Shown: piece by piece, positions 426-43,568 of the stretch
How positions within the stretch are numbered: the first letter of the stretch is position 1
Layout: each line of letters begins with the position of its first letter
Virus record (IMG/VR): IMGVR_UViG_3300036790_000396
Coordinates: 1-64,000 of that record
Strand: one strand, 5' to 3'
Origin: a virus
Length of the DNA: 64,000 nt
Translations under genes and position numbers: made by a program
Notes under the pieces: generated by a model
What the model was told of the DNA's origin: nothing
The model's input: only the letters and a program-made list of their open reading frames with translations
The model's database searches: none

Positions 426-1064
426 GTGACCACCTTTAACCTTTACCGGCAGGCGCAGCTCGCCGCCTGGCTCGCGCAGGTGGACTGGAACAGCGACAAC
501 ATCGTCGTCACCCAGCACACCAGCTCGTACACGCCCAGCCTGGACGCCAACGCCCACGTCTCCGACCTCACGGGCGAGGTCGCCACCGGGAACGGGTACA
601 CCCAGGGCGGCGCGGCCCTCGACGGGCGCGCGGCGGCCTACCATCCGGCCGCGAGCTGGCCCGACACATGGGCAGCGTCTGCCGCCTACGCTGTCGGCGC
701 CGTGGTGCGCCCGGCCTCGTCGCCGGTGCTTCTCTACCGCTGCTCGGCAGCCGGCACCTCCGGGGCGACGGCACCCGCGTGGCCTCAGTCGCCGGGACTG
801 ACCGTCACTGACGGGTCGGTCACCTGGGACGCGGTCGGCGCCGGGGCCGTCGCCCTTACCGCGGACGTGCTGACATGGGAGGAGTACTCCGCGACGTTCC
901 GCTACCTCGTCATCTCCGACCGGACGCCGGATACCGCTGCGGCCCAGCCGCTGCTCGCCGTCGCCGACGCCGGCAGCAGCGTCACCGGGTCGGGAGGCTC
1001 CCTCACCGTCACCTTCGACTCCGGGACAGGCTCCGGCATCGTGATCCCGCTGTGGGCTCCGTGA
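426..1064 (+). CDS. Virion structural protein with a carbohydrate-binding-like insert
   Basis: GTG after GGAGG. WAASAAYAVGAVVRP..LYRCSAAGTSG..PAWP..VTDGSVTW motif typical of tail-associated proteins. Confidence 0.7.
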   Translation: MTTFNLYRQAQLAAWLAQVDWNSDNIVVTQHTSSYTPSLDANAHVSDLTGEVATGNGYTQGGAALDGRAAAYHPAASWPDTWAASAAYAVGAVVRPASSPVLLYRCSAAGTSGATAPAWPQSPGLTVTDGSVTWDAVGAGAVALTADVLTWEEYSATFRYLVISDRTPDTAAAQPLLAVADAGSSVTGSGGSLTVTFDSGTGSGIVIPLWAP

Positions 1065-1070
1065 CCGGTC

Positions 1071-2939
1071 ATGGCCAAGATCACTGACTACGAGGCACTC
1101 GAATCGGCCGCCGGTGCCGATGTCATGCTCATCGTCGACGTCTCCGACACTTCCCAGTCCCAGGCGGGCACCACCAAGAAAGTGCTCGTCTCCGGGCTGC
1201 TGTCCGCCAGCGGCGTGCAGCTGGGCGCGGACCTGGGCGGCACCGACGAGGCTCCCGAGGTCATCAGCACCCACCTGACCGCGCCGCTGCCTCTCGCCCA
1301 GGGCGGCACGGCAGCTGCTACCGGCCCGGCGGCACTGACCTCCCTCGGGGCCGCGTCCGCCTCCGCCCTGTCCGCGGAGACGACCCGCGCGGAGACTGCC
1401 GAGGCCCTCAAGGCTCCCCTCGCTTCCCCCGTGTTCACCGGCACTCCCGCTGCCCCTACGGCCTCTGCGGGAACCGATACCACCCAGCTTGCGACCACGG
1501 CGTTCGTCACTTCCGCAGTCAGTACCGAGACCTCCCGCGCCGAGACCGCCGAGGCACTGAAGGCCCCGCTGGCGTCTCCTGCTCTCAGCGGCACCCCCAC
1601 CGCCCCGACGGCGGCAGCGGGCACTGACACCACCCAGCTGGCCACGACGGCGTTCGTGTCCGCCGCGGCGCTCCCGCTGCCGTCCGGGACGCCCTCCGAC
1701 GGCCAGGTGCCCGCAGTCTCGGCGGTGTCCCCGCTGGCCATGGAATGGGCGGATAACGGCAGCGGCGGCGGGGGCTCCGGCACCGTCACCGACGTCGCCG
1801 TCGAGTCCGCGAACGGCTTCGCGGGGACCGTCGCCGACAGCACGACGACCCCTCAGCTCACCCTGTCCACGACCGTCACCGGCGTGCTGAAGGGCAACGG
1901 GACCGCCGTGTCGGCTGCCACGGCGGGCACCGATTACTCGACGCCTGCCGAAGTCTCCTCGGCTGTCTCCGGCCTCGCCCCGCTCGCCTCTCCCGTGTTC
2001 ACCGGAACTCCGGCCGCTCCTACCGCGGCGGCCGGGACGAACACTGTCCAGCTCGCCACGACCGCGTTCGCGGCAGCGGCGGCAGCATCGGCCCAGTCGG
2101 CGGCGGAAGCCTACGCGGAGGGGCTGCAGCCGACCAGCGGCGCCCCGCTCGCCCTGGCCGACGGCGGCACCGGCGTGAGCGCCGGCTCGGACAGCGCCCT
2201 GCTGACCTCCCTGGGCGCGGCGTCTTCGACGGCCCTGTCCGCGGAGACGAGCCGGGCCGAAGCGGCCGAGGTGCTTCTCGCCCCTCTCGCCTCGCCGGCG
2301 CTGACGGGGACTCCCGCTGCTCCCACGGCTTCAGCCGGGACGAACACGACCCAGCTCGCGACTACTGCCTTCGTGACGTCAGCGGTCAGCACCGAGACCT
2401 CCCGCGCCGAGACGGCAGAGGCCCTCAAGGCGCCCCTCGCCTCTCCTGTGCTGACGGGCACTCCCGCCGCGCCGACGGCGACGGCCGGGACGAATACCAC
2501 CCAGCTCGCCACGACCGCGTTCGTCACGACCGCCGTGTCCGCGGAGGCCAGCCGCGCCGAGACGGCGGAGGCCCTCGCATTCCCGAAGACGGGCGGGGCG
2601 CTCACCGGCCATGTGTCCCCCGCCGTCGTCACCCTCACCGACGGCTCCTCCGTCGCCCTGAACGCGGCGTCCGGAAACGTCTTCGAGTGGGCTCTCGGCG
2701 CTAACGGCCATACTCTCGCGGCCCCGTCCAACCCGGTCGCCGGACAGGTGATCATCATCGACATCGTCCCCAGCGGCGCTTTCACTCCCGCATTCAATGC
2801 CGTCTTCGCGTTCGGCACCGACGGGCAGCCCTCCTGGTCCGCGGCCAGCGGTACCCTCGACGAGATCGCGTTCCGCTACTCCTCCCTGGCCTCGGCCTGG
2901 ATCTGCCAGGGCTGGAAGCTCGGCTTCACGGGAGCGTAA
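1071..2939 (+). CDS. Tail fibre protein with internal repeats
   Basis: Five copies of APLASP(V/A)xxGTPxAPTAxAGT(D/N)TxQLATTAF, a typical phage tail-fibre repeat, with ET(S/T)RAETAEAL linkers. Confidence 0.85.
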   Translation: MAKITDYEALESAAGADVMLIVDVSDTSQSQAGTTKKVLVSGLLSASGVQLGADLGGTDEAPEVISTHLTAPLPLAQGGTAAATGPAALTSLGAASASALSAETTRAETAEALKAPLASPVFTGTPAAPTASAGTDTTQLATTAFVTSAVSTETSRAETAEALKAPLASPALSGTPTAPTAAAGTDTTQLATTAFVSAAALPLPSGTPSDGQVPAVSAVSPLAMEWADNGSGGGGSGTVTDVAVESANGFAGTVADSTTTPQLTLSTTVTGVLKGNGTAVSAATAGTDYSTPAEVSSAVSGLAPLASPVFTGTPAAPTAAAGTNTVQLATTAFAAAAAASAQSAAEAYAEGLQPTSGAPLALADGGTGVSAGSDSALLTSLGAASSTALSAETSRAEAAEVLLAPLASPALTGTPAAPTASAGTNTTQLATTAFVTSAVSTETSRAETAEALKAPLASPVLTGTPAAPTATAGTNTTQLATTAFVTTAVSAEASRAETAEALAFPKTGGALTGHVSPAVVTLTDGSSVALNAASGNVFEWALGANGHTLAAPSNPVAGQVIIIDIVPSGAFTPAFNAVFAFGTDGQPSWSAASGTLDEIAFRYSSLASAWICQGWKLGFTGA

Positions 2940-2940
2940 G

Positions 2941-2990
2941 GCATAACGATATTTTTATATTATTTAATTACTAATAAGAAAAGGCAGGAA
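2941..2990. promoter_or_regulatory. Very AT-rich intergenic stretch (probable promoter of an inserted gene)
   Basis: GATATTTTTATATTATTTAATTACTAATAAGAAAA in a high-GC genome, directly upstream of a lower-GC gene. Confidence 0.5.
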
Positions 2991-3374
2991 ATGACAGCTA
3001 ATTATACAATGATGAAGTACATAGGGATAGGACCGCTTGACTCTGAGGGAAACGGCACTTCGCTAACCTATGTCACTGACGGTACTGCGTCAGTGACGAT
3101 CAAGAATCACGGACCGTCAGCTGTATTCCTGACTGCGTGCGAGGCAGGCGGTGATCCTGACTCTTTTACGGGACAAGGACATCTCTACCCGGCTCAAGCG
3201 GAAGTCCCCGCAGGAACAGTAACATCTCAGGCTCGCATCGAAGCGGGCGAGACGACGCCTCTCATTACCCTTATCGAAACAGATACTTCAGGGAGCACTT
3301 CGTGCATCATAGTCGGCTGCACTGACGGTTCGCCTATGGCGTGGCTCAGCATTTACACAACGCAGACAGCATGA
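2991..3374 (+). CDS. Hypothetical protein, lower GC (moron-like)
   Basis: 127-aa ORF with many A/T-ending codons. Confidence 0.65.
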   Translation: MTANYTMMKYIGIGPLDSEGNGTSLTYVTDGTASVTIKNHGPSAVFLTACEAGGDPDSFTGQGHLYPAQAEVPAGTVTSQARIEAGETTPLITLIETDTSGSTSCIIVGCTDGSPMAWLSIYTTQTA

Positions 3375-3380
3375 TAGCCG

Positions 3381-3899
3381 ATGACCAGCTACAGCCTGCT
3401 TAATCAGGCCGGTACGCCGTCGGAGCTGGACTCCCAGACGAATCAGGTGAACGGGGTCAAGTTCACTGTTTCCTCGGCCGTGACCCTGACGGCGATCTGG
3501 GTGTATTCCTATGCAGGAGCACACCTCCCCGCCGCAGCGGGCCTGTATAGCGGCAGCGGGACGCTGGTGTTCTCCAACACGTCGCCGACGTGGTCCGGGG
3601 CAGCCGGATCGGGCTGGGTCAGCTGCGCGTGCTCTCAGCCCCTGACTTCGGGGATCACGTACACGGCTGCCGCCGTCGGCCCGGCAGGAGACTCCTGGTA
3701 CGCGCTCACGTCCGGCGCATGGGGCCCGGTTACCAGCGGGCCGCTGTCGTGCACCTCGAATCCCAACTGCTATGTACTGGGGTCGTCGCTGGCGTACCCG
3801 TCAAATCCCTATGCGGCGTACAACATCTGGATGGACGTCGAGGTATCTGCCGGCAGCACGCCCGGACGCGGGTCCCTGCTGCTGGGGGCGGTCCTGTGA
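3381..3899 (+). CDS. DUF4082-like beta-sandwich protein
   Basis: GVKFTVSSAVTLTAIWVY...SGWV...PL..GITY.A...YNIWMDVEV pattern. Confidence 0.65.
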   Translation: MTSYSLLNQAGTPSELDSQTNQVNGVKFTVSSAVTLTAIWVYSYAGAHLPAAAGLYSGSGTLVFSNTSPTWSGAAGSGWVSCACSQPLTSGITYTAAAVGPAGDSWYALTSGAWGPVTSGPLSCTSNPNCYVLGSSLAYPSNPYAAYNIWMDVEVSAGSTPGRGSLLLGAVL

Positions 3900-5038
3900 T
3901 CGGCATCCTCGACGAGGCCGGGAACGCGGTCCTCGACCAGGCCGGCAGCACTGTCAGCGACGAGACCGGACCGGTTCCCGTCACGCTGCCTCCGGCCGGG
4001 GCAGCAGGCAGCGCTCTCCCCGCACTGGTCTTCACCGGCCCCCTCGTCACGCTGCCGCCGGCGGGGACCGGCGGCGCGGTCCCGGGCATCGTCCTCGTCT
4101 TCGGCACCGCCGTCGCGCTGCACCCTGCTTCCGGCGGGGCCTCGTTCGCCCCGGCGCTGATCCGTCCCTACATCGACATGGTCGTGACCGGAGCCGGGGG
4201 GGGCGCCGCCGCAGGCTCTCCTCCTGTCATCCGCTTCGAGATCCCGCCCCCTCCGGCACCGGTCCTCCCCGCGTGGCAGCGGGACCACGAGGGCTGGGCC
4301 GTGGCCCGCGAGCGCCTGTCCCACGTGCAGGCCCTGTGGCAGTACGGTGAGCTGTCCTACTTCGCGCTGCAGTGGCACATCCAGGACCACGAGGCGGGAC
4401 TCGTGCCGCGCTGCTGGCGCTGCTGGGACGGCGAGAACTCCGCCGCGCCCGTCGAGGACGCCGAGAACCTCATCGCCTCCGCCTACGGGCAGGGCAACCA
4501 GTACCTGTGCCCCGTCTGCTACGGGACCACGTTCGCGCTCCCGGAGGGCGCTTCCCCGCTCCCCGGGCTGCGCGCCCTCATCGTCCGCCCGGCGGTGTGG
4601 AGCGAGTTCGACCGCAGTCAGCAGTACCAGGCCCGCGGCGTCTACGACTCCGCATCCGTGAACGTCGAGTCGGTGCCGGACTTCCGGGTCCGCGCCGGGG
4701 ACTGGGCGTTCCGCGCGGACGGGGCCCGGTTCTACCTGCGGGCGCCCAGGCGCACGACGCTGCGCACCGGGTTCGGGGACCCGTGGCAGCAGACGGCGGC
4801 GATCACCTACAACATGATGCAGGCCGCCCTGGAGTCCCCGCAGTCCGCGGCCTACCGGGTGCCCCCCGCGCCTGCCGTCCTGGCAAGGGTGCTCGGCTCC
4901 TACACCCGCGTCCCGGCGGACTACTCGTGGGCCGAGACCGTCAACGCCGCCCTGATCCCGCTGGAGTCACCGCCCCCGGCGGCTTCCGGGTCGCCGCAGG
5001 GCCCCGTCACGTTCCCGCTGGCCGGAGGGGTGACTTAG
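3896..5038 (+). CDS. Virion neck / head-tail joining protein (putative)
   Basis: GTG overlaps the previous stop; CWRC and CPVC motifs; located upstream of tail completion and sheath genes. Confidence 0.6.
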   Translation: MIGILDEAGNAVLDQAGSTVSDETGPVPVTLPPAGAAGSALPALVFTGPLVTLPPAGTGGAVPGIVLVFGTAVALHPASGGASFAPALIRPYIDMVVTGAGGGAAAGSPPVIRFEIPPPPAPVLPAWQRDHEGWAVARERLSHVQALWQYGELSYFALQWHIQDHEAGLVPRCWRCWDGENSAAPVEDAENLIASAYGQGNQYLCPVCYGTTFALPEGASPLPGLRALIVRPAVWSEFDRSQQYQARGVYDSASVNVESVPDFRVRAGDWAFRADGARFYLRAPRRTTLRTGFGDPWQQTAAITYNMMQAALESPQSAAYRVPPAPAVLARVLGSYTRVPADYSWAETVNAALIPLESPPPAASGSPQGPVTFPLAGGVT

Positions 5039-5040
5039 CA

Positions 5041-5109
5041 GTGCCCCCCGCTGCCGGGCCGGTCCAGAACGAGACCGCCGAGCTGCAGATCAGCAATCAC
5101 CCGGACAGG
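5041..5109 (+). pseudogene. Remnant original 5' end of the 5711..6424 gene, now in frame with the HNH gene
   Basis: VPPAAGPVQNETAELQISNHPDR aligns with MPPAFGALNNETAEMILSKNPDR at 5711; GGAGG upstream at about 5024. Confidence 0.75.
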
Positions 5110-5115
5110 GCGCGC

Positions 5116-5190
5116 TACGCTGTGCTCATCAGGATGCCCGGGCACCGCGCCAACGGCCCCGGGCTGGTCAGCCTGCCAGGAGGCTTCCCC
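5116..5190 (+). promoter_or_regulatory. HNH cassette leader copy 1: -10 box TACGCT, hairpin, sequestered RBS
   Basis: 5128-5193 is 62/66 nt identical to 9249-9314 (-). Confidence 0.75.
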
Positions 5191-5739
5191 ATGGCGCGAG
5201 CATACGTAGAGATCCCGCTGAACGGCAAGAAGGCTGCCGGGCGTGTGGCACTCGTGGACATCGACGACTACTCGAAGGTAATGCCTTACCGGTGGTTCTG
5301 TCGAGAAGAAATCAGCGAAGGAAAGCAGAATGTAGGGCCTTATGCTACTACTAATTTCTGGAAAGAAGGAAAACATCTTTCGTTTAGCATGCATAAGATC
5401 ATTACTGGATACCTGAAGACAGATCATCATGACGGAAACGGTCTTAACAACAGGAAGAATAATCTGCGTCCTGGATCTAAAGGGCGTAACGAGATGAACA
5501 AGCGTGCTCATAAAAATAGCACTTCATCTTATAAGGGAGTATCATGGCATCGAAGAGGAAGTAAGTGGACTGCTAACATAACTGTAGACTACAAGCTCAT
5601 TTACCTTGGATTGTTTTCTTATGAACTGGATGCAGCTCGCGCTTACGACAGAGCTGCATGCTCTCTATTTAAGGAATACGCTCTATTCAACTTTCCTGAG
5701 GAGCATCAGCATGCCGCCAGCGTTTGGTGCCCTAAATAA
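5191..5739 (+). CDS. HNH-AP2 homing endonuclease
   Basis: ALVDIDDY...MHKII...DHHDGNGLNNRKNNLR (HNH) followed by SSYKGVSW..KWTANI..IYLGLF..ELDAARAYD (AP2); low GC. Confidence 0.92.
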   Translation: MARAYVEIPLNGKKAAGRVALVDIDDYSKVMPYRWFCREEISEGKQNVGPYATTNFWKEGKHLSFSMHKIITGYLKTDHHDGNGLNNRKNNLRPGSKGRNEMNKRAHKNSTSSYKGVSWHRRGSKWTANITVDYKLIYLGLFSYELDAARAYDRAACSLFKEYALFNFPEEHQHAASVWCPK

Positions 5740-6424
5740 CGAGACTGCTGAAATGATTCTCAGCAAGAATCCAGATCGAATACTGATGATAGTTCCTAGG
5801 CTCAACCCAAATAGAGCCCGCAGGTGCGCAAATTCTGCCGCTAGTCTTACTCGGAAAATAATGCCAAAGCTTTCCGGGAGAGCTGCCAGTAGAATATTTC
5901 CTATTTACGGAAAAGGATACTTCGGAGTCGGGTGGCTAGACAGCTATGTTTACTTTCAGGAAAGAGGAATTTCCCCGTTCACCATGACGAAGCTCGCCGG
6001 CAAGACGATTCCCATGTGGGTCAATGACGAGTTCGGCACCGAGCGCCAGAAGAACCCGAAGGCGAAGACCCGCGTCACCCTGTCCGGCATTACGCAGGTG
6101 CTGATCTTCCGCAGGGCCGCGAACGTCGGCGAGACCAGGACGGTCCGCACGAAGGTCGCCGGCCAGTGGGTGACGCGCACCGTCCCGAAATCTTACCCCG
6201 GTGCTCCCGGCCGGATCTCCGCCCGCGAGGCCGGGCGCCCGCAGACGACGCCCGGCCGCCGTCCCGGCGCGATTGCCCCCGGCAACGTCGGGATCCGGTG
6301 GCGCCACCCCGGGCTCGCGCCGCGGCTGTTCATCAACCACGCCATTACTCTTGCTGCCCAGCAGAACGGCATTCTTCCCGTGCGCCTGTACGTCGCCAAC
6401 CGCGACTGGCGCCAGCATTTCTGA
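5711..6424 (+). CDS. Virion morphogenesis / neck protein with AT-rich recoded N-terminus
   Basis: ATG after GAGGAG; basic protein ending WRHPGLAPRLFINHAI; first ~90 codons AT-rich, remainder high GC3. Confidence 0.75.
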   Translation: MPPAFGALNNETAEMILSKNPDRILMIVPRLNPNRARRCANSAASLTRKIMPKLSGRAASRIFPIYGKGYFGVGWLDSYVYFQERGISPFTMTKLAGKTIPMWVNDEFGTERQKNPKAKTRVTLSGITQVLIFRRAANVGETRTVRTKVAGQWVTRTVPKSYPGAPGRISAREAGRPQTTPGRRPGAIAPGNVGIRWRHPGLAPRLFINHAITLAAQQNGILPVRLYVANRDWRQHF

Positions 6425-6442
6425 CCTGGCCCCGGAAGCATC

Positions 6443-7114
6443 GTGACCCTTCCGACGCCGCCGCCGGTCCCGGGGTTCCTGCGGACTGTCAGGACCGGGA
6501 TCCGCGATGCCCTGGAGCAGTCGTTCGGCTACTCCTACCCCGAGCAGGACGCTAGCGGCGGCACGAAGAGATCGTTCGTCTCCCTGTCCTACCCGAGGAG
6601 GGAAGCCGACTACCCGGGCGTGTGGCTGGACTTCGAGGTCAGCCTGCTGCAGACCGTCGGCCTGGACCACACCGAGATCGACTCCTCCGGCAACGCCGTC
6701 ACCCGCTGGCGGTTCCAGGGCTATGCCACGTTCACCGTCGTGGCTCTCAATGACAACGAGTGCGACGCGATCTGGGACCAGCTCGTCGGCCTGACCGCGT
6801 TCGCGGCCCAGTCCGATTACCCCTCCGCGTTCCGCTCGGCGGTGGAGGGCAATCCCCTCGTCTCGCTGACGCTGGCCACCGACACCGTCGACATGCGCGG
6901 CAGCGGTGCCTCCCCCGGCACTCCCTGGGGCAGCGACGAGGTGATCTACGAGCGCGGCATGGGGCTGAAGGCGGTCGGGGAGTTCGTCACGGTCCCGCAG
7001 GCGCAGGCTCTCGTCCCGCTGAGCGAGATCATCGTCACCGGCCAGCCGTCCGACATCGCCGGCGACCCGGTCGGCAGTCCCTGGACCCTGACGATCGGCC
7101 CGGACAGCCCCTAG
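6443..7114 (+). CDS. Tail completion / terminator protein (putative)
   Basis: Directly upstream of sheath; YP...YPGVWLDF motif; preceded by CCCCGGAAG (6430). Confidence 0.65.
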   Translation: MTLPTPPPVPGFLRTVRTGIRDALEQSFGYSYPEQDASGGTKRSFVSLSYPRREADYPGVWLDFEVSLLQTVGLDHTEIDSSGNAVTRWRFQGYATFTVVALNDNECDAIWDQLVGLTAFAAQSDYPSAFRSAVEGNPLVSLTLATDTVDMRGSGASPGTPWGSDEVIYERGMGLKAVGEFVTVPQAQALVPLSEIIVTGQPSDIAGDPVGSPWTLTIGPDSP

Positions 7115-7160
7115 GGCCAGCCCCGGAAGGAACAGAGCCGTCGCTGCAGGAGGAGCCCAG

Positions 7161-8708
7161 ATGTCAATTCCGACATTCGCGTCATATACCCCGCCCGGGG
7201 TGTACGTGGCTCCCACGAACACGCCCATCGTCACGGTATCCGGATCGACGCCGCAGGTCATGGCGCTCGCCGGCCCGGCCCTGGGCTACCGCACCGCCGT
7301 GCAGTCGTTCCTGATCTACGCCGCGACCGGTGCCCTCCTGAACTTCAGCGGCGTGTTCACCACCGCCCAGGACGGCCCGCCCGCGATCTCGGCCCCGGTC
7401 CTCACGATCACCGGCACCTCGACCGTCCTGGTGGAGGGCACTGACTACACCTTCACCGTCACTGCCGACCCGTCCGGGAACACGGCCCTGGCCACGACCT
7501 CGGTCTCCCGCGTGGCGGAATCCGAGACGGTTACCGACGGCACGCAGGTGACGGCCACCTACAACTACGCCGACGGCACCTACTACCAGCCGACGCTGTT
7601 CACCAGCCTGCAGTCGGTCATCTCCGCCTACGGCCAGCCCCTGGTCACTGCGGCCCCGACGACGCCGAACACCAGCCAGGTCGCGAACCCGCTGTCGTTC
7701 GGCGCGCAGGTCGCGTTCTCCTCCGGTGCCAGCCAGGTCTACTGCGTGGCGACCGACCCGTCTGACGGGACGTTCGACGAGCAGCTGACGGCGGCCTGGG
7801 CCAAGCTCGCCACCAATCCCAACGTGACTCTCCTCGTGCCGGTGTTCCCCGATTACCTGGACCCGCTCGCGACGCCGACGAGCGTCCCGGCGTTCGCCCA
7901 GGTGATCGCCTCCGACCTGGATGCGGCCTGCACCACCGCCGCTGCCGCCGGCTACCCGCGGATCGGGTTCATGGGGCTGCCCGTCGACTACTCCGAGTCG
8001 GTTCTGTCGGTTCCGGCGTTCGCGACCGCGATCAGCGACGAGCGCCTCGTTGTCGCCTACCCGGAGATCGTGCAGACCTACAATCCTTCGACCCGGCAGA
8101 CGTTCCAGGCATGCGGCTGCCACCTGGCCGCGTCGCTGGCCGCGATCCTGTCGGCGCTGCCGGTCAATACCGGCCTGACGGGGCAGGCGGTGCCGGTCTT
8201 CACCCTGACTCCCACCGAGCTGCAGAACATGACCGTGGCGGCCATGAACACGATCGCCGCCGCGGGCGTCACGATCGTCGCGCAGAACCGCGCCGGGGCG
8301 CTGCAGGTACGGCAGGGCCTGACGACCGACATGGCGGACCTGAACACCCGCGAGATCTCGGTGGTGCGCCAGTCCGACACGCTGATGCTGCTGCTGGAGG
8401 CGGGCCTGGAGGCGTCGGGGCTGATCGGGTCCCCGATCACCGCGACGATGGTGGCGACGGTGCAGGGCGCGATCTCGTCGATCCTGCAGCAGGCGGTGAA
8501 CTCCGCCGTCATCGTGGCGTGGCTGAACCTGTCGGTGCAGCAGGAGGCGTACCCGGGCGGGGACCCGACGATCATCACCGCGTCGTTCTCCTACGCCCCG
8601 GCGTTCCCCCTGAACTACATCACGGTGACGTACTCCATCGACCTGTCCAACGGCCTGGTGGCCACGGCCGAGGCTGCGGCATCGGGCACCGCCAGTACCG
8701 CCGGCTGA
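7161..8708 (+). CDS. Contractile tail sheath protein
   Basis: N-terminal YTPPGVYV; C-terminal VRQGLTTD..TREISVVRQ.D...YAPAFPLNYITV. Confidence 0.92.
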   Translation: MSIPTFASYTPPGVYVAPTNTPIVTVSGSTPQVMALAGPALGYRTAVQSFLIYAATGALLNFSGVFTTAQDGPPAISAPVLTITGTSTVLVEGTDYTFTVTADPSGNTALATTSVSRVAESETVTDGTQVTATYNYADGTYYQPTLFTSLQSVISAYGQPLVTAAPTTPNTSQVANPLSFGAQVAFSSGASQVYCVATDPSDGTFDEQLTAAWAKLATNPNVTLLVPVFPDYLDPLATPTSVPAFAQVIASDLDAACTTAAAAGYPRIGFMGLPVDYSESVLSVPAFATAISDERLVVAYPEIVQTYNPSTRQTFQACGCHLAASLAAILSALPVNTGLTGQAVPVFTLTPTELQNMTVAAMNTIAAAGVTIVAQNRAGALQVRQGLTTDMADLNTREISVVRQSDTLMLLLEAGLEASGLIGSPITATMVATVQGAISSILQQAVNSAVIVAWLNLSVQQEAYPGGDPTIITASFSYAPAFPLNYITVTYSIDLSNGLVATAEAAASGTASTAG

Positions 8709-9251
8709 TCAGCCCTTGACGACGTTCAGCAGGGCATACTCGCCAAACAGTTCCATGGCGGCAGCGTTGTACGCCCGTGCTGCGTCGTCTTCCTGCTCGA
8801 AGATACCGAGATACCTCGTCTTTCCCTCGAAGGTGATCCGGGCCATCCACTTATTACTCTGAGCGGCCCAGTGGACGCCCTTGTAGCGGGAGGTCTTTCC
8901 CGTGCTCTTGCGGGCGCGCTGATTGTGGGTGTTTCCCTTCGTTCCGTCGCGCAAGTTTGAGCGCCGGTTGTCCAGGGTGTTCCCGTTAATGACGTGATCG
9001 ACAACCCGCCAGCGGTCTCCGCCAGGCATCGCGCGGCCGACCATGGTGTGCATGAAGACGGACGTGCGCGTGCCGTCCTGGCGCCGGATGTGGGTGATGG
9101 CGTAGGGGCCGGCAGTGTTGCCTTCGCGTTCCTGCTCCCAGACGTTCCACGTATATAGCGAGACCAGCTCATAATCCTGCTGGTCTACAAGAGCTATGCG
9201 GCCTGCAGCTTTGTCGCCGCGAAGCTTGATCTCTGCATACCCTGATGACAT
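8709..9251 (-). CDS. HNH-AP2 homing endonuclease (paralogue of 5191..5739, opposite strand)
   Basis: ALVDQQDY..VFMHTMV..VDHVINGNTLDNRRSNLR plus SRYKGVHW..KWMARI..RYLGIF..DDAARAYN; ATG at 9251 after GGAGG. Confidence 0.92.
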   Translation of the reverse strand: MSSGYAEIKLRGDKAAGRIALVDQQDYELVSLYTWNVWEQEREGNTAGPYAITHIRRQDGTRTSVFMHTMVGRAMPGGDRWRVVDHVINGNTLDNRRSNLRDGTKGNTHNQRARKSTGKTSRYKGVHWAAQSNKWMARITFEGKTRYLGIFEQEDDAARAYNAAAMELFGEYALLNVVKG

Positions 9252-9325
9252 GGGGAAGCCTCCTTGCGGGCTGACCAGCCCGGGACCGTTGGCGCGGTGC
9301 CCGGGCATTCTGATATTCCAGATTA
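9252..9325 (-). promoter_or_regulatory. HNH cassette leader copy 2: -10 box TAATCT, hairpin, sequestered RBS
   Basis: Near-identical to 5128-5190. Confidence 0.75.
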
Positions 9326-9414
9326 GCACGAGGAGATCGTTAGCCCGGAAGTAACGACAGCGCGGAACGGCAGCAAGAGCTACCGGCTGAATCGGACAAA
9401 GGAGGTGATTTGGA

Positions 9415-9956
9415 ATGGCAACTACTAATGTTCGCGTCGTGGGATCAGGGTACACAGTCCTCTCATATAACAACAAAGCTATCGCTTACTGCGAAGGCTG
9501 GGAGGACTCTGGACAAAGGGCCTTCTCAGACGCAGGACAGCCATTCCAGTTACTTAGTTCATCCAGCCTATTGGTGCCACATATCCGGTCGAAATCGCTA
9601 CCTCCCGCGTCCTGGCCGGGGGCACCCTCATGCTGACCATCCGCGAGCTGTGGAACCAGCCCGTGTGGTGGCAGCTGGCCGGCCTGGCAGGGACCTGGTC
9701 CATCGTCGACATCTTCGCGGCCCTGGCCGCCAACCCGCAGTACGTCACGGCGTCCCTGATCATCAAGCCGCCGGGCACCGAGAACACCCCGTCCGCCTGG
9801 CGCGGCAAGCTGTACCAGAACGTGACGGTAGTGGACATCAATGACGGGGACACGGTCACGGTAGGAGCCCTTGCTGTCACCAAGGGCATCACATGCGCGT
9901 ACACCAACTACCTGCCGTTGAACTCGAACCAGTACAGCGCACTCACAGGGCAATAA
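9415..9956 (+). CDS. Tail tube protein, frame broken by an 8-bp insertion at 9550-9557
   Basis: MATTNVRVVGSGYT...GQPFQ continues as FIQPIGATYPVEIATSRVLAGGTLMLTIRELWNQPVW... only if TTACTTAG is removed; position after sheath and size fit a tube protein. Confidence 0.75.
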
Positions 9957-9966
9957 AACGGATATA

Positions 9967-10000
9967 AGGAAGGCCCGCAGTATTTCCTGCGGGCCTTCCT
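9967..10000. terminator. Stem-loop terminator
   Basis: AGGAAGGCCCGCAG-TATTTC-CTGCGGGCCTTCCT, 14-bp perfect stem after the tube gene. Confidence 0.8.
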
Positions 10001-10117
10001 GCACTAGCTCAGCTCAGGGAAACGCTGACTGGTGCCAGAGCCCGGATCGCCGGCATCAGCCTGCTGCGCTGCCGAGCCCACGGAAGCAATAAGAGACCGC
10101 CTACCCCGGGGAGCCGC

Positions 10118-10465
10118 ATGAGCACGCCCGCACAGCCCGCCACTCCGACGCTGACCCTGTCCACCGACAAGCAGGTCTACGTCACCGGCGACACCCTCAC
10201 CCTCACCGCCGCCTATGCCGACGACGCCTCCAGCCCGGTCCAGCTGACCATCACGGCCACCGCGACCGACGCGTCCGGCAGCACCGTCAACGCGACCAGC
10301 CAGGTCACCGTCACCGAGTCGGCCCCGCAGCCGATGACCGTCACCGCGGCCGACTCCTTCGGCGACACCTACTCTCTGGTGTCCAACGACAGCGCGGGGA
10401 CCGCCGTCCTCACCGCCGTCGTCGGCACGCCCCCGGCCGCCCCGGCCCCTGCTCCCGCGAGCTGA
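10118..10465 (+). CDS. Ig-like virion decoration protein
   Basis: TLTLSTDKQVYVTGDTLTLTA; Thr-rich beta strands. Confidence 0.65.
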   Translation: MSTPAQPATPTLTLSTDKQVYVTGDTLTLTAAYADDASSPVQLTITATATDASGSTVNATSQVTVTESAPQPMTVTAADSFGDTYSLVSNDSAGTAVLTAVVGTPPAAPAPAPAS

Positions 10466-16969: not shown

Positions 16970-16992
16970 GACCGTCTCCTTCTCTTGCCTCC

Positions 16993-17020
16993 ACTATACC
17001 AAGGTTTATTGGTATTTCAA
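16993..17020 (-). promoter_or_regulatory. Sigma70-type promoter TTGAAA-N16-TATAGT with embedded palindromic operator
   Basis: Operator ATACCAAGGTTTATTGGTAT (16996-17015) is identical to 38047-38066. Confidence 0.75.
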
Positions 17021-37764: not shown

Positions 37765-38045
37765 TGGCCCGCGAGATCATCATCGCCCCGTCGGCGAAGG
37801 CGCCTCCCGCTGCGGTGGCCGACGGGGACGAGTACGGCGAGCCGGGAGGGCCCTGGGAACCGTCGGAGGTGACGGTCCCGGCCGTGACGGACGGCCAGTA
37901 CGAGTTAGGAGCTGACTTCCCGCGTCGCCCCGCACTGGCACACTTCCACGCGGATCCTCTTGCCCTGGGCGTTCGTGTACTCGCGGCTCGGGCGCCACTG
38001 GTGCGTGTGGTTCTCATCGGGCATGATTTCCTCCAGGTGGTTTAA
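37764..38045 (+). CDS. Hypothetical protein; 3' half overlaps an antisense gene
   Basis: TGATG coupling with the previous gene. Confidence 0.45.
   Translation: MAREIIIAPSAKAPPAAVADGDEYGEPGGPWEPSEVTVPAVTDGQYELGADFPRRPALAHFHADPLALGVRVLAARAPLVRVVLIGHDFLQVV
37905..38024 (-). CDS. 39-aa putative Zn-binding microprotein
   Basis: GGAGG-N5-ATG; MPDENHTHQWRPSREYTNAQGKRIRVEVCQCGATREVSS; below the ORF-track size cutoff. Confidence 0.65.
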   Translation of the reverse strand: MPDENHTHQWRPSREYTNAQGKRIRVEVCQCGATREVSS

Positions 38046-38069
38046 AATACCAAGGTTTATTGGTATAGT
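38041..38069 (+). promoter_or_regulatory. Sigma70-type promoter TTTAAA-N17-TATAGT with the same palindromic operator as 16996
   Basis: Identical 20-mer at 38047-38066, between divergent genes. Confidence 0.75.
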
Positions 38070-38104
38070 GGAGTCATCAGCCTACACCAACCCGAGGAGA
38101 TCCG

Positions 38105-43206: not shown

Positions 43207-43568
43207 GGTGACGCACCCGGTGACGCACTTTAGTGACGCATCAAAGACAATTAATGATATGCCTGACCTGCAGTTATATGTTGGTGACGCAGGTGACGCA
43301 ACTTTTGGGAAACTACCCTGAGCGGCCATCGGCCGCTCTTTTTGATTACTTAGGGTAATATCATATCGAGCCAAAAGTTACCCGACAGTAGTGATAACAG
43401 CAACTAAGTCTAGAAGTAGCAATGGATACATCTGGCATCGCGCGTGCGTGCGCGAGAGAGTTTCCCAAAAGTTGCGTCACCTGCGTCACCTTCGACAAAA
43501 CTCCAGCTCAGACCCTACGAAATACCGACTCTGCTGCGTCACTCGGGTGCGTCACCGGGTGCGTCACC
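43207..43568. repeat. Putative replication origin: ten (G/A)GTGACGCA iterons in mirror symmetry around an AT-rich core
   Basis: Forward copies at 43207, 43219, 43232, 43283, 43292; inverted copies at 43473, 43482, 43535, 43548, 43560; perfect 32-bp inverted repeat 43283-43314 / 43459-43490. Confidence 0.85.

Follow-up and report, generated by a model that had tools for sequence, protein, structure and literature searches.

How can a homing endonuclease gene occupy the coding start of a conserved phage gene, with neither intron nor intein, and still leave that gene whole? This question is raised by a locus in IMG/VR virus record IMGVR_UViG_3300036790_000396, a sequence of 146,944 bp with direct terminal repeats, of which positions 1 to 64,000 (the window, that is, the whole 64-kb stretch of DNA analyzed here) form the opening part. 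The window has a GC content of ~69%, the two sequencing runs containing it are soil metagenomes, and the organism is an uncultured tailed soil phage of ~147 kb with a contractile-tail module at the locus in question. There, a free-standing homing endonuclease gene of the HNH-AP2 type lies between a GC-rich stub of 23 codons, which is the native start of a conserved gene (gene X), and a complete copy of X that begins anew on a low-GC version of the same codons. We consider this arrangement to be, with somewhat better than even probability, a phage homing element of the terminus-replacing kind that acts on the 5' end of its host gene. The locus comprises the following features, where GC3 is GC content at third codon positions:

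5024..5030 (+): GGAGGGG, a Shine-Dalgarno-like sequence of the ancestral X start, read from the sequence
5041..5109 (+): stub, the native first 23 codons of X; GC3 0.91; last codons encode the family-invariant Pro-Asp-Arg
5110..5190 (+): GC-rich spacer and leader, with an ATG at 5134, the inverted repeat GCCCGGG/CCCGGGC and AGGAGG at 5178-5183
5191..5739 (+): HNH-AP2 free-standing homing endonuclease gene, 182 amino acids (aa), intact; stop TAA at 5737-5739
5285..5985 (+): foreign low-GC tract, GC ~0.42-0.47, from inside the HNH gene to X codon ~90
5698..5703 (+): GAGGAG, ribosome-binding site for the restart of X, within the 3' end of the HNH gene
5711..6424 (+): gene X, 237 aa, complete, start ATG at 5711

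Both the similarity of the stub to the X family and its position identify it as the ancestral start of X. The stub opens with GTG at 5041, 3 nt past the TAG stop codon (5036-5038) of an upstream gene, U. When 3183 six-frame pieces of the genome were compared with a profile of 22 X homologues, from which the window's own protein was left out, the stub matched at profile position 1 with an E value of 0.02; its frame was the only other match to the profile in the six frames, and the next-ranked piece had an E value of 1.6. In the nearest relatives with DNA to compare (L003, L004, and L115), X starts 0-3 nt from the U stop with no nuclease gene between the two. Given the profile match and this syntenic start position, the resemblance is more than chance similarity. 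The 3' end of U aligns with the gene preceding X in L004, and U 3' end and stub together align with the U-X junction of the relatives, the similarity ending directly past Pro-Asp-Arg. At the nucleotide level, the stub is closer to L003 and L004 (identities of 0.68 and 0.72) than is the low-GC copy (0.52 and 0.55), a test of closeness to relatives that has also been applied to fungal mitochondrial gene hybrids (PMC3630166). The two copies lie 670 nt apart on one strand and are 58% identical in nucleotides, and within the Pro-Asp-Arg codons the recoded copy departs from the stub at several synonymous positions. The stub frame stays open through the 81-nt GC-rich spacer into the nuclease ATG at 5191, with no stop until 5739 (open reading frame [ORF] 4372-5739). 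An earlier note on this DNA had described a high-GC 23-codon stub with its own ribosome-binding site, in frame with the nuclease and with the same N-terminus as X, and had expected a single high-GC gene in cassette-free relatives; each of these claims is borne out, the last by L003, L004, and L115. In the cassette-free X of L115 (2932-3645), GC3 dips to 0.38 at codons 17-24, around the invariant Pro-Asp-Arg, which may represent target-site variation.

The nuclease product scored 34.7 bits against Pfam AP2 (cut-off 33.3) and 17.1 bits against HNH_3, under the cut-off of 24.8, and matched PHROG 99 ("HNH endonuclease") with an E value of 7.7e-30. In an alignment with 13 homologues, it retains all invariant His, Asn, and Arg columns, and it is predicted to cleave DNA. 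The protein is ~46% identical to that of a second copy in the genome (HNH2), and its best match outside the genome is 54% identical. Homologues are free-standing between genes of the same tail module in relatives, for example in L010, and the gene is present or absent at one locus among relatives (L003, L004, and L115 being without it). Its last 29 nt overlap X, the actual end being 5739 rather than the 5713 given previously, and the record's own gene call starts the nuclease at the ATG at 5134 (201 aa). The 66-nt leader (5125-5190) is ~94% identical to the HNH2 leader (9252-9317, minus strand) and has no other copy in the genome, so this common leader may be a regulatory element or the product of recent gene conversion. 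No sigma-70-like promoter was detected in a scan of 4800-10200, leaving nothing to bear out the promoter that had been assigned to the mobile unit. Rfam searches at E values of up to 1 returned no family over the nuclease gene, stub, or recoded start; the only matches in 4500-10200 were two weak ones to Thr_leader at ~9964-10076, with a terminator-like hairpin near 9965-10003. Likewise, the product of 5041-5739 has no Hint or intein domain. In two other IMG/VR contigs (L005 and L006, 129-185 kb), two HNH-AP2 copies and a partial third were seen within 2.6 kb (930-3495), one copy lying in an island of 42% GC in a surrounding region of 58% GC.

Downstream of the nuclease, X forms a single ORF of 237 aa. 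Its codons 1-23 (5711-5779) repeat the stub in low-GC spelling, and from about codon 93 the gene is native high-GC DNA. GC3 is 0.45 over codons 1-92 and 0.88 beyond, with the switch at ~5975-5985. The low-GC tract as a whole has a GC3 of 0.41-0.45 versus 0.88-0.96 in the flanks, and its left edge falls inside the nuclease gene, between ~5260 and ~5330. The first 92 codons of X include four AGA and four ATA codons and the next 145 none, a contrast beyond the reach of simple decay; deamination around repeated breaks was ruled out as the origin of the tract, since AGA and ATA codons require transversions. The X family comprises 968 homologues, nearly all of 233-237 aa, with a conserved N-terminus and an invariant Pro-Asp-Arg at residues 21-23, and the 92 low-GC codons keep every residue that is invariant in the 22 homologues. 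Compared with the nearest homologue (P0001), X is 71% identical in its N-terminal part and 81% in its C-terminal part; the N-terminal third is generally less conserved in the family (mean 0.57 versus 0.69), and the lower value is thus about what the C-terminal identity predicts. By its composition, the N-terminus that follows the nuclease gene is foreign, low-GC DNA, which reads on into the rest of X, and by its conservation it looks functional. The restart at 5711 on a diverged AT-rich N-terminus, with a ribosome-binding site inside the nuclease gene, and the return to high GC3 near 5985 had both been noted before and stand. In contrast, X is not split by the cassette, as had been proposed, and of the suggested mobile unit of promoter, nuclease, and recoded fragment, the recoded start holds up, whereas the promoter does not, nor does the low-GC tract as one unit, which is instead part of a mosaic.

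A function for X was not evident from Pfam, in which it matched no family, and its PHROG (2819) has no known function. The AlphaFold model is of low confidence (mean predicted local distance difference test score [pLDDT] 64.7), a Foldseek search against PDB returned nothing at an E value of 0.001 or better, and the best VIA-align Z score (6.5) was at background level. Two familiar arrangements were rejected for this locus. A nuclease borne by a group I or II intron or by an intein is at odds with the lack of Rfam matches and of Hint or intein domains, and with an X that is complete without splicing; a gene in pieces, of the type of mobE in nrdA of phage Aeh1, is at odds with a single 237-aa ORF in which the stub duplicates the start rather than supplying a missing part.

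We found the order of stub, nuclease, and recoded start once more in this genome, at 110822-111833 (L064:1323-2334), with a different nuclease and a different target. Here, a prohead-protease-like gene has left a 44-codon stub (GC3 1.0) whose frame continues into a low-GC HNH gene of a family other than HNH-AP2 (HNH_5, E value 7.6e-11). The 3' end of this nuclease gene overlaps the GGAGG and GTG of a low-GC duplicate start of ~40 codons, which continues into the GC-rich remainder of the gene. In six IMG/VR relatives, the prohead-protease-like gene is seamless and GC-rich. Because both low-GC edges coincide with the insertion point, this locus is a clean cassette. A genome-wide self-comparison for pairs of stub and duplicate yielded these two real cases and no third; the candidates 141059/141659 and 93481/95071 were discarded, as a repeat inside a fibre-like ORF and an intein-like region, respectively. 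Elsewhere in the head region, at ~89668-96839, two very long ORFs carry intein-like segments, with low-GC islands at 93981-95060, which points to further selfish elements in head-region genes.

Under the explanation we favor, the nuclease would cut nuclease-free X near the invariant Pro-Asp-Arg at codons 21-23, and the break would be repaired from a carrier genome, with U and the stub serving as the left arm and X from codon ~90 as the right arm. Such repair would introduce both the nuclease gene and an X start in another spelling that presumably resists cutting, and no splicing would be needed because X is whole. With stub and nuclease sharing one open frame, ribosomes starting at the old X start could read into the nuclease and would end beside the new X start. 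The diverged spelling may additionally guard against deletion by recombination between the two copies of the start. The arrangement probably began with a one-sided repair, for which the donor was a diverged relative of lower GC with the nuclease gene upstream of its own X; the homologous right end would have invaded this donor, and the left end would have been closed by illegitimate joining.

Several observations weigh against this explanation. The low-GC tract does not begin where the stub ends but further on, inside the nuclease gene. The leader and the first ~25-45 nuclease codons are GC-rich and the leader is common with HNH2, so the locus is a mosaic, shaped by at least two recombination events and most simply made when two HNH-AP2 genes recombined in their conserved 5' part. 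The same low-GC start of the tube gene is also present in contigs that have no HNH2 between the sheath and tube genes, and a recoded start is hence not strictly tied to carrying a nuclease. Neither a second carrier nor a donor lineage was detected in IMG/VR, Joint Genome Institute (JGI) metagenomes, or a set of 5.8 billion proteins, the best matches being 77% identical for X and 54% for the nuclease. Similarly, a blastn search of 3500-7200 against 50,697 phage records gave no match, no close relatives of X were confirmed in IMG/VR and JGI metagenome contigs, a degenerate DNA pattern for the stub peptide returned one chance match in metagenome contigs (the unrelated contig L063), and short X protein fragments used to search for a cassette-free allele starting like the stub gave six distant matches only. 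The same element at the same site in several genomes was not encountered; the design alone recurs, with another nuclease and another gene. Stub and nuclease are fused in frame at both loci, but this would happen by chance with a probability of ~1 in 9 and offers weak support as a sign of function.

Several of these points are equally what would be expected of an ordinary low-GC patch, acquired once from a lower-GC relative by homeologous or illegitimate recombination, in which the stub would be an accidental scar and the nuclease would have been carried along with no element-like mobility. The left edge inside the nuclease gene, the leader matching the second HNH-AP2 copy, the lack of a second carrier or donor, and the low-GC start in nuclease-free contigs at the tube locus all agree with such a one-off mosaic. 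Nevertheless, we regard it as rather improbable, as the same order of stub, nuclease, and recoded start occurs again in the genome with an unrelated HNH gene, both events fall in the first tens of codons of conserved genes beside intact nuclease genes, and both stubs are in frame with the nuclease.

Less probable by far is that X is a truncated protein of 146 aa beginning at Met-92 (5984), with the 92 low-GC codons as a decaying piece of pseudogene. This is how the record's own gene call (P0098, 5984-6424) has it, covering only the last 146 aa; yet these codons form an open frame continuous with the rest of X, have GAGGAG ahead of them, and keep all invariant residues at 71% identity to the nearest homologue, and the 968 homologues are all about full length. 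Had the X start been duplicated locally in tandem and one copy then diverged where it lay, this would account for two copies of 23 codons lying 670 nt apart on one strand, but we find it very hard to credit: GC3 differs between the copies (0.45 versus 0.91), AGA and ATA codons and an identity of 58% cannot arise in place in a 69% GC genome with flanks at a GC3 of ~0.9, and the nuclease body has the same foreign make-up. The record being a metagenome assembly, a chimera of a high-GC and a low-GC phage might also be suspected. However, when run X1 (probably the source sample, hence the same reads with a different assembler) was assembled independently, one contig of 4864 nt spanned 3832-8695, crossing both junctions, with no difference and at a depth of ~197; the locus is thus not an assembly artefact. 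The two copies are moreover too unlike to mislead an assembler, so a chimera is the least credible of these alternatives. Run X2 had no cover over 5372-5839 and one contig beginning near 5965, which was not counted as a cassette-free allele, given that contigs cannot show the absence of a segment.

The closest parallel to a terminus-replacing element at gene X is found in yeast. The WHO endonucleases cut FBA1, and repair copies the WHO gene along with a resistant 3' end; what remains of the old FBA1 end, a fragment, provides the second homology arm. This mechanism has been shown experimentally (PMC7282813). Common to the WHO elements in FBA1 of Torulaspora and Lachancea (Coughlan et al. 2020, eLife) and to the X locus is a nuclease gene that travels with a replacement end of the host gene, and in both the displaced native end is kept as a fragment, no splicing is involved, and the host gene is chimeric. 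The replacement end confers resistance in WHO, whereas for X the recoded start is presumed to do so. As a mirror image of each other, WHO replaces the 3' end and the X locus the 5' end, and the WHO nuclease is an intein-derived LAGLIDADG zinc-finger protein of yeast rather than an HNH-AP2 protein of a phage. The X locus further differs in that the stub is fused in frame to the nuclease and that cleavage is a prediction.

Endonuclease ORFs in fungal mitochondria (Allomyces atp6; Glomus atp6, atp9, cox2, and nad3) similarly combine an in-phase foreign terminus with a nuclease ORF, and there, as at X, the native terminus is left alongside and is closer to relatives than the inserted copy (PMC3630166). 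Those cases are C-terminal, with LAGLIDADG or GIY-YIG nucleases in organelles, in contrast to an N-terminal case with HNH-AP2 in a high-GC phage (PMC3630166). Among phages, the free-standing Seg and Mob nucleases of T4 resemble the X locus, as explained here, in that the nuclease gene adjoins a conserved gene with co-conversion of the flanks, and in being promoter-less cassettes that depend on upstream signals and that contain, within the nuclease gene, the signals from which the next gene starts (PMC2988022). Nonetheless, T4-type cases lie between genes with seamless flanks or split a gene into two polypeptides (mobE in nrdA, Aeh1), and none has been described with a left-over native start and a replacement start (PMC2988022). 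Gene-start replacement by a homing nuclease was not found in the phage literature searched.

Beyond the X locus, the module contains a second HNH-AP2 cassette beside a broken gene. Gene order is what suggests that X is a virion gene. The neighboring features are:

1071-2939: tail-fibre gene of the contractile-tail module
3590..5038 (+): conserved upstream gene U, from the ORF list; start uncertain, stop TAG at 5036-5038; PHROG 2806 (function unknown)
6443-7114: gene Y, a conserved gene of the tail module
7161-8708: tail sheath gene (PHROG 2839, E value 5e-46)
8709..9384 (-): second HNH-AP2 cassette, HNH2, 676 nt, comprising the ORF 9251-8709 and its leader, between the tail sheath and tail tube genes
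9415-9956: tail-tube-like gene of the tail module

The HNH2 cassette varies within the sampled populations, as in two runs there are minor contigs with 46 other letters between 8708 and 9385. Next to it, the tail-tube gene is broken at 9550-9557 (region 9541-9566) by a frame-breaking, TTA-led insert of 8 nt, TTACTTAG, which sits at the exact boundary between low GC (GC3 0.53) and high GC (0.86). Both halves of the gene are 95% identical to the unbroken tube protein of L004, and the insert is in the dominant population, at a depth of ~161. The HNH2-free contig from run X1 has 8 gaps over 9385-9614 and is therefore probably without the insert. Two relatives also carry inserts in the tube gene: L009 (~6427-6442) has the 8-nt TTACCTGG after a TGG codon, also TTAC-led and at another codon, and L096 (~1822-1836) has the 6-nt TAGTCC, with an in-frame TAG, after a TCT codon. 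If the peptidyl-tRNA leaves the codon before the insert and pairs again with the final three insert bases, the product is exactly the ancestral protein in each of the three cases. TTA is used at 0.35 per 1000 codons in the genome. Such inserts occur in three of the seven distinct loci with a long insert in the sheath-tube gap (one of these, L069, is GC-rich and without evident gene), versus none of ~55 loci with an empty gap, and all three loci have a nuclease-like gene in the gap. The fold of the 8-nt insert region, like those of both HNH-AP2 leaders, was not better than shuffles.

These tube inserts are candidates for short ribosomal bypass linked to homing endonucleases; a rival explanation is that they are repair scars at microhomologies. 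One precedent is the bypass cassette of T4 mobA and gene 60, in which an essential gene next to an HNH gene is interrupted by a short stretch that is not translated (10.1101/2022.08.31.505936; PMC2988022). Another is the terminase gene of phiHau3, whose 10-nt inserts have the rare UUA at their 5' end and matching take-off and landing codons (PMC10732093); the term "homing endonuclease" is absent from that paper. Unlike these cases, the inserts described here are of 6-8 nt and lie in a tail tube gene, and their bypass is a prediction. Read together with the X locus, they raise the tentative and, in our view, doubtful possibility that nucleases of this phage lineage follow two splicing-free strategies inside essential virion genes, gene-start capture and a hopped insert, as heritable parts of a cassette rather than scars. 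Capture would make a stub-nuclease fusion out of the host gene's start, with the host gene re-initiating on a resistant recoded start that travels with the element; homing into codon 23 would then proceed much as for an intron, the stub providing the homology on the left. In the tube gene, an insert of 6-8 nt led by TTA or a stop would destroy the nuclease target, and ribosomes would hop over it.

Two further features of the window were observed. A low-GC 500-nt region (43207-43568) contains nested inverted repeats of GGTGACGCA units and may be regulatory or origin-like. An AT-rich inverted pair of 35 nt with a TATACCAAGGTTTATTGGTAT core is placed at two distant intergenic sites (16986-17020 and 38042-38076).

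If the X locus is a terminus-replacing homing element, as we consider probable, homing endonucleases need neither intron nor intein to settle in the first codons of a conserved phage gene. A mechanism proven for WHO in yeast, and also described for fungi in their mitochondria, would thereby reach tailed phages and the 5' ends of genes. Such elements would generate chimeras of essential genes and would let phages that differ greatly in base composition exchange DNA locally. They also mislead automatic annotation: in the record, the nuclease is called at 201 aa and X at 146 aa. As the design is a recurrent one, the natural cleavage sites of these enzymes could be located from the stubs beside their genes.

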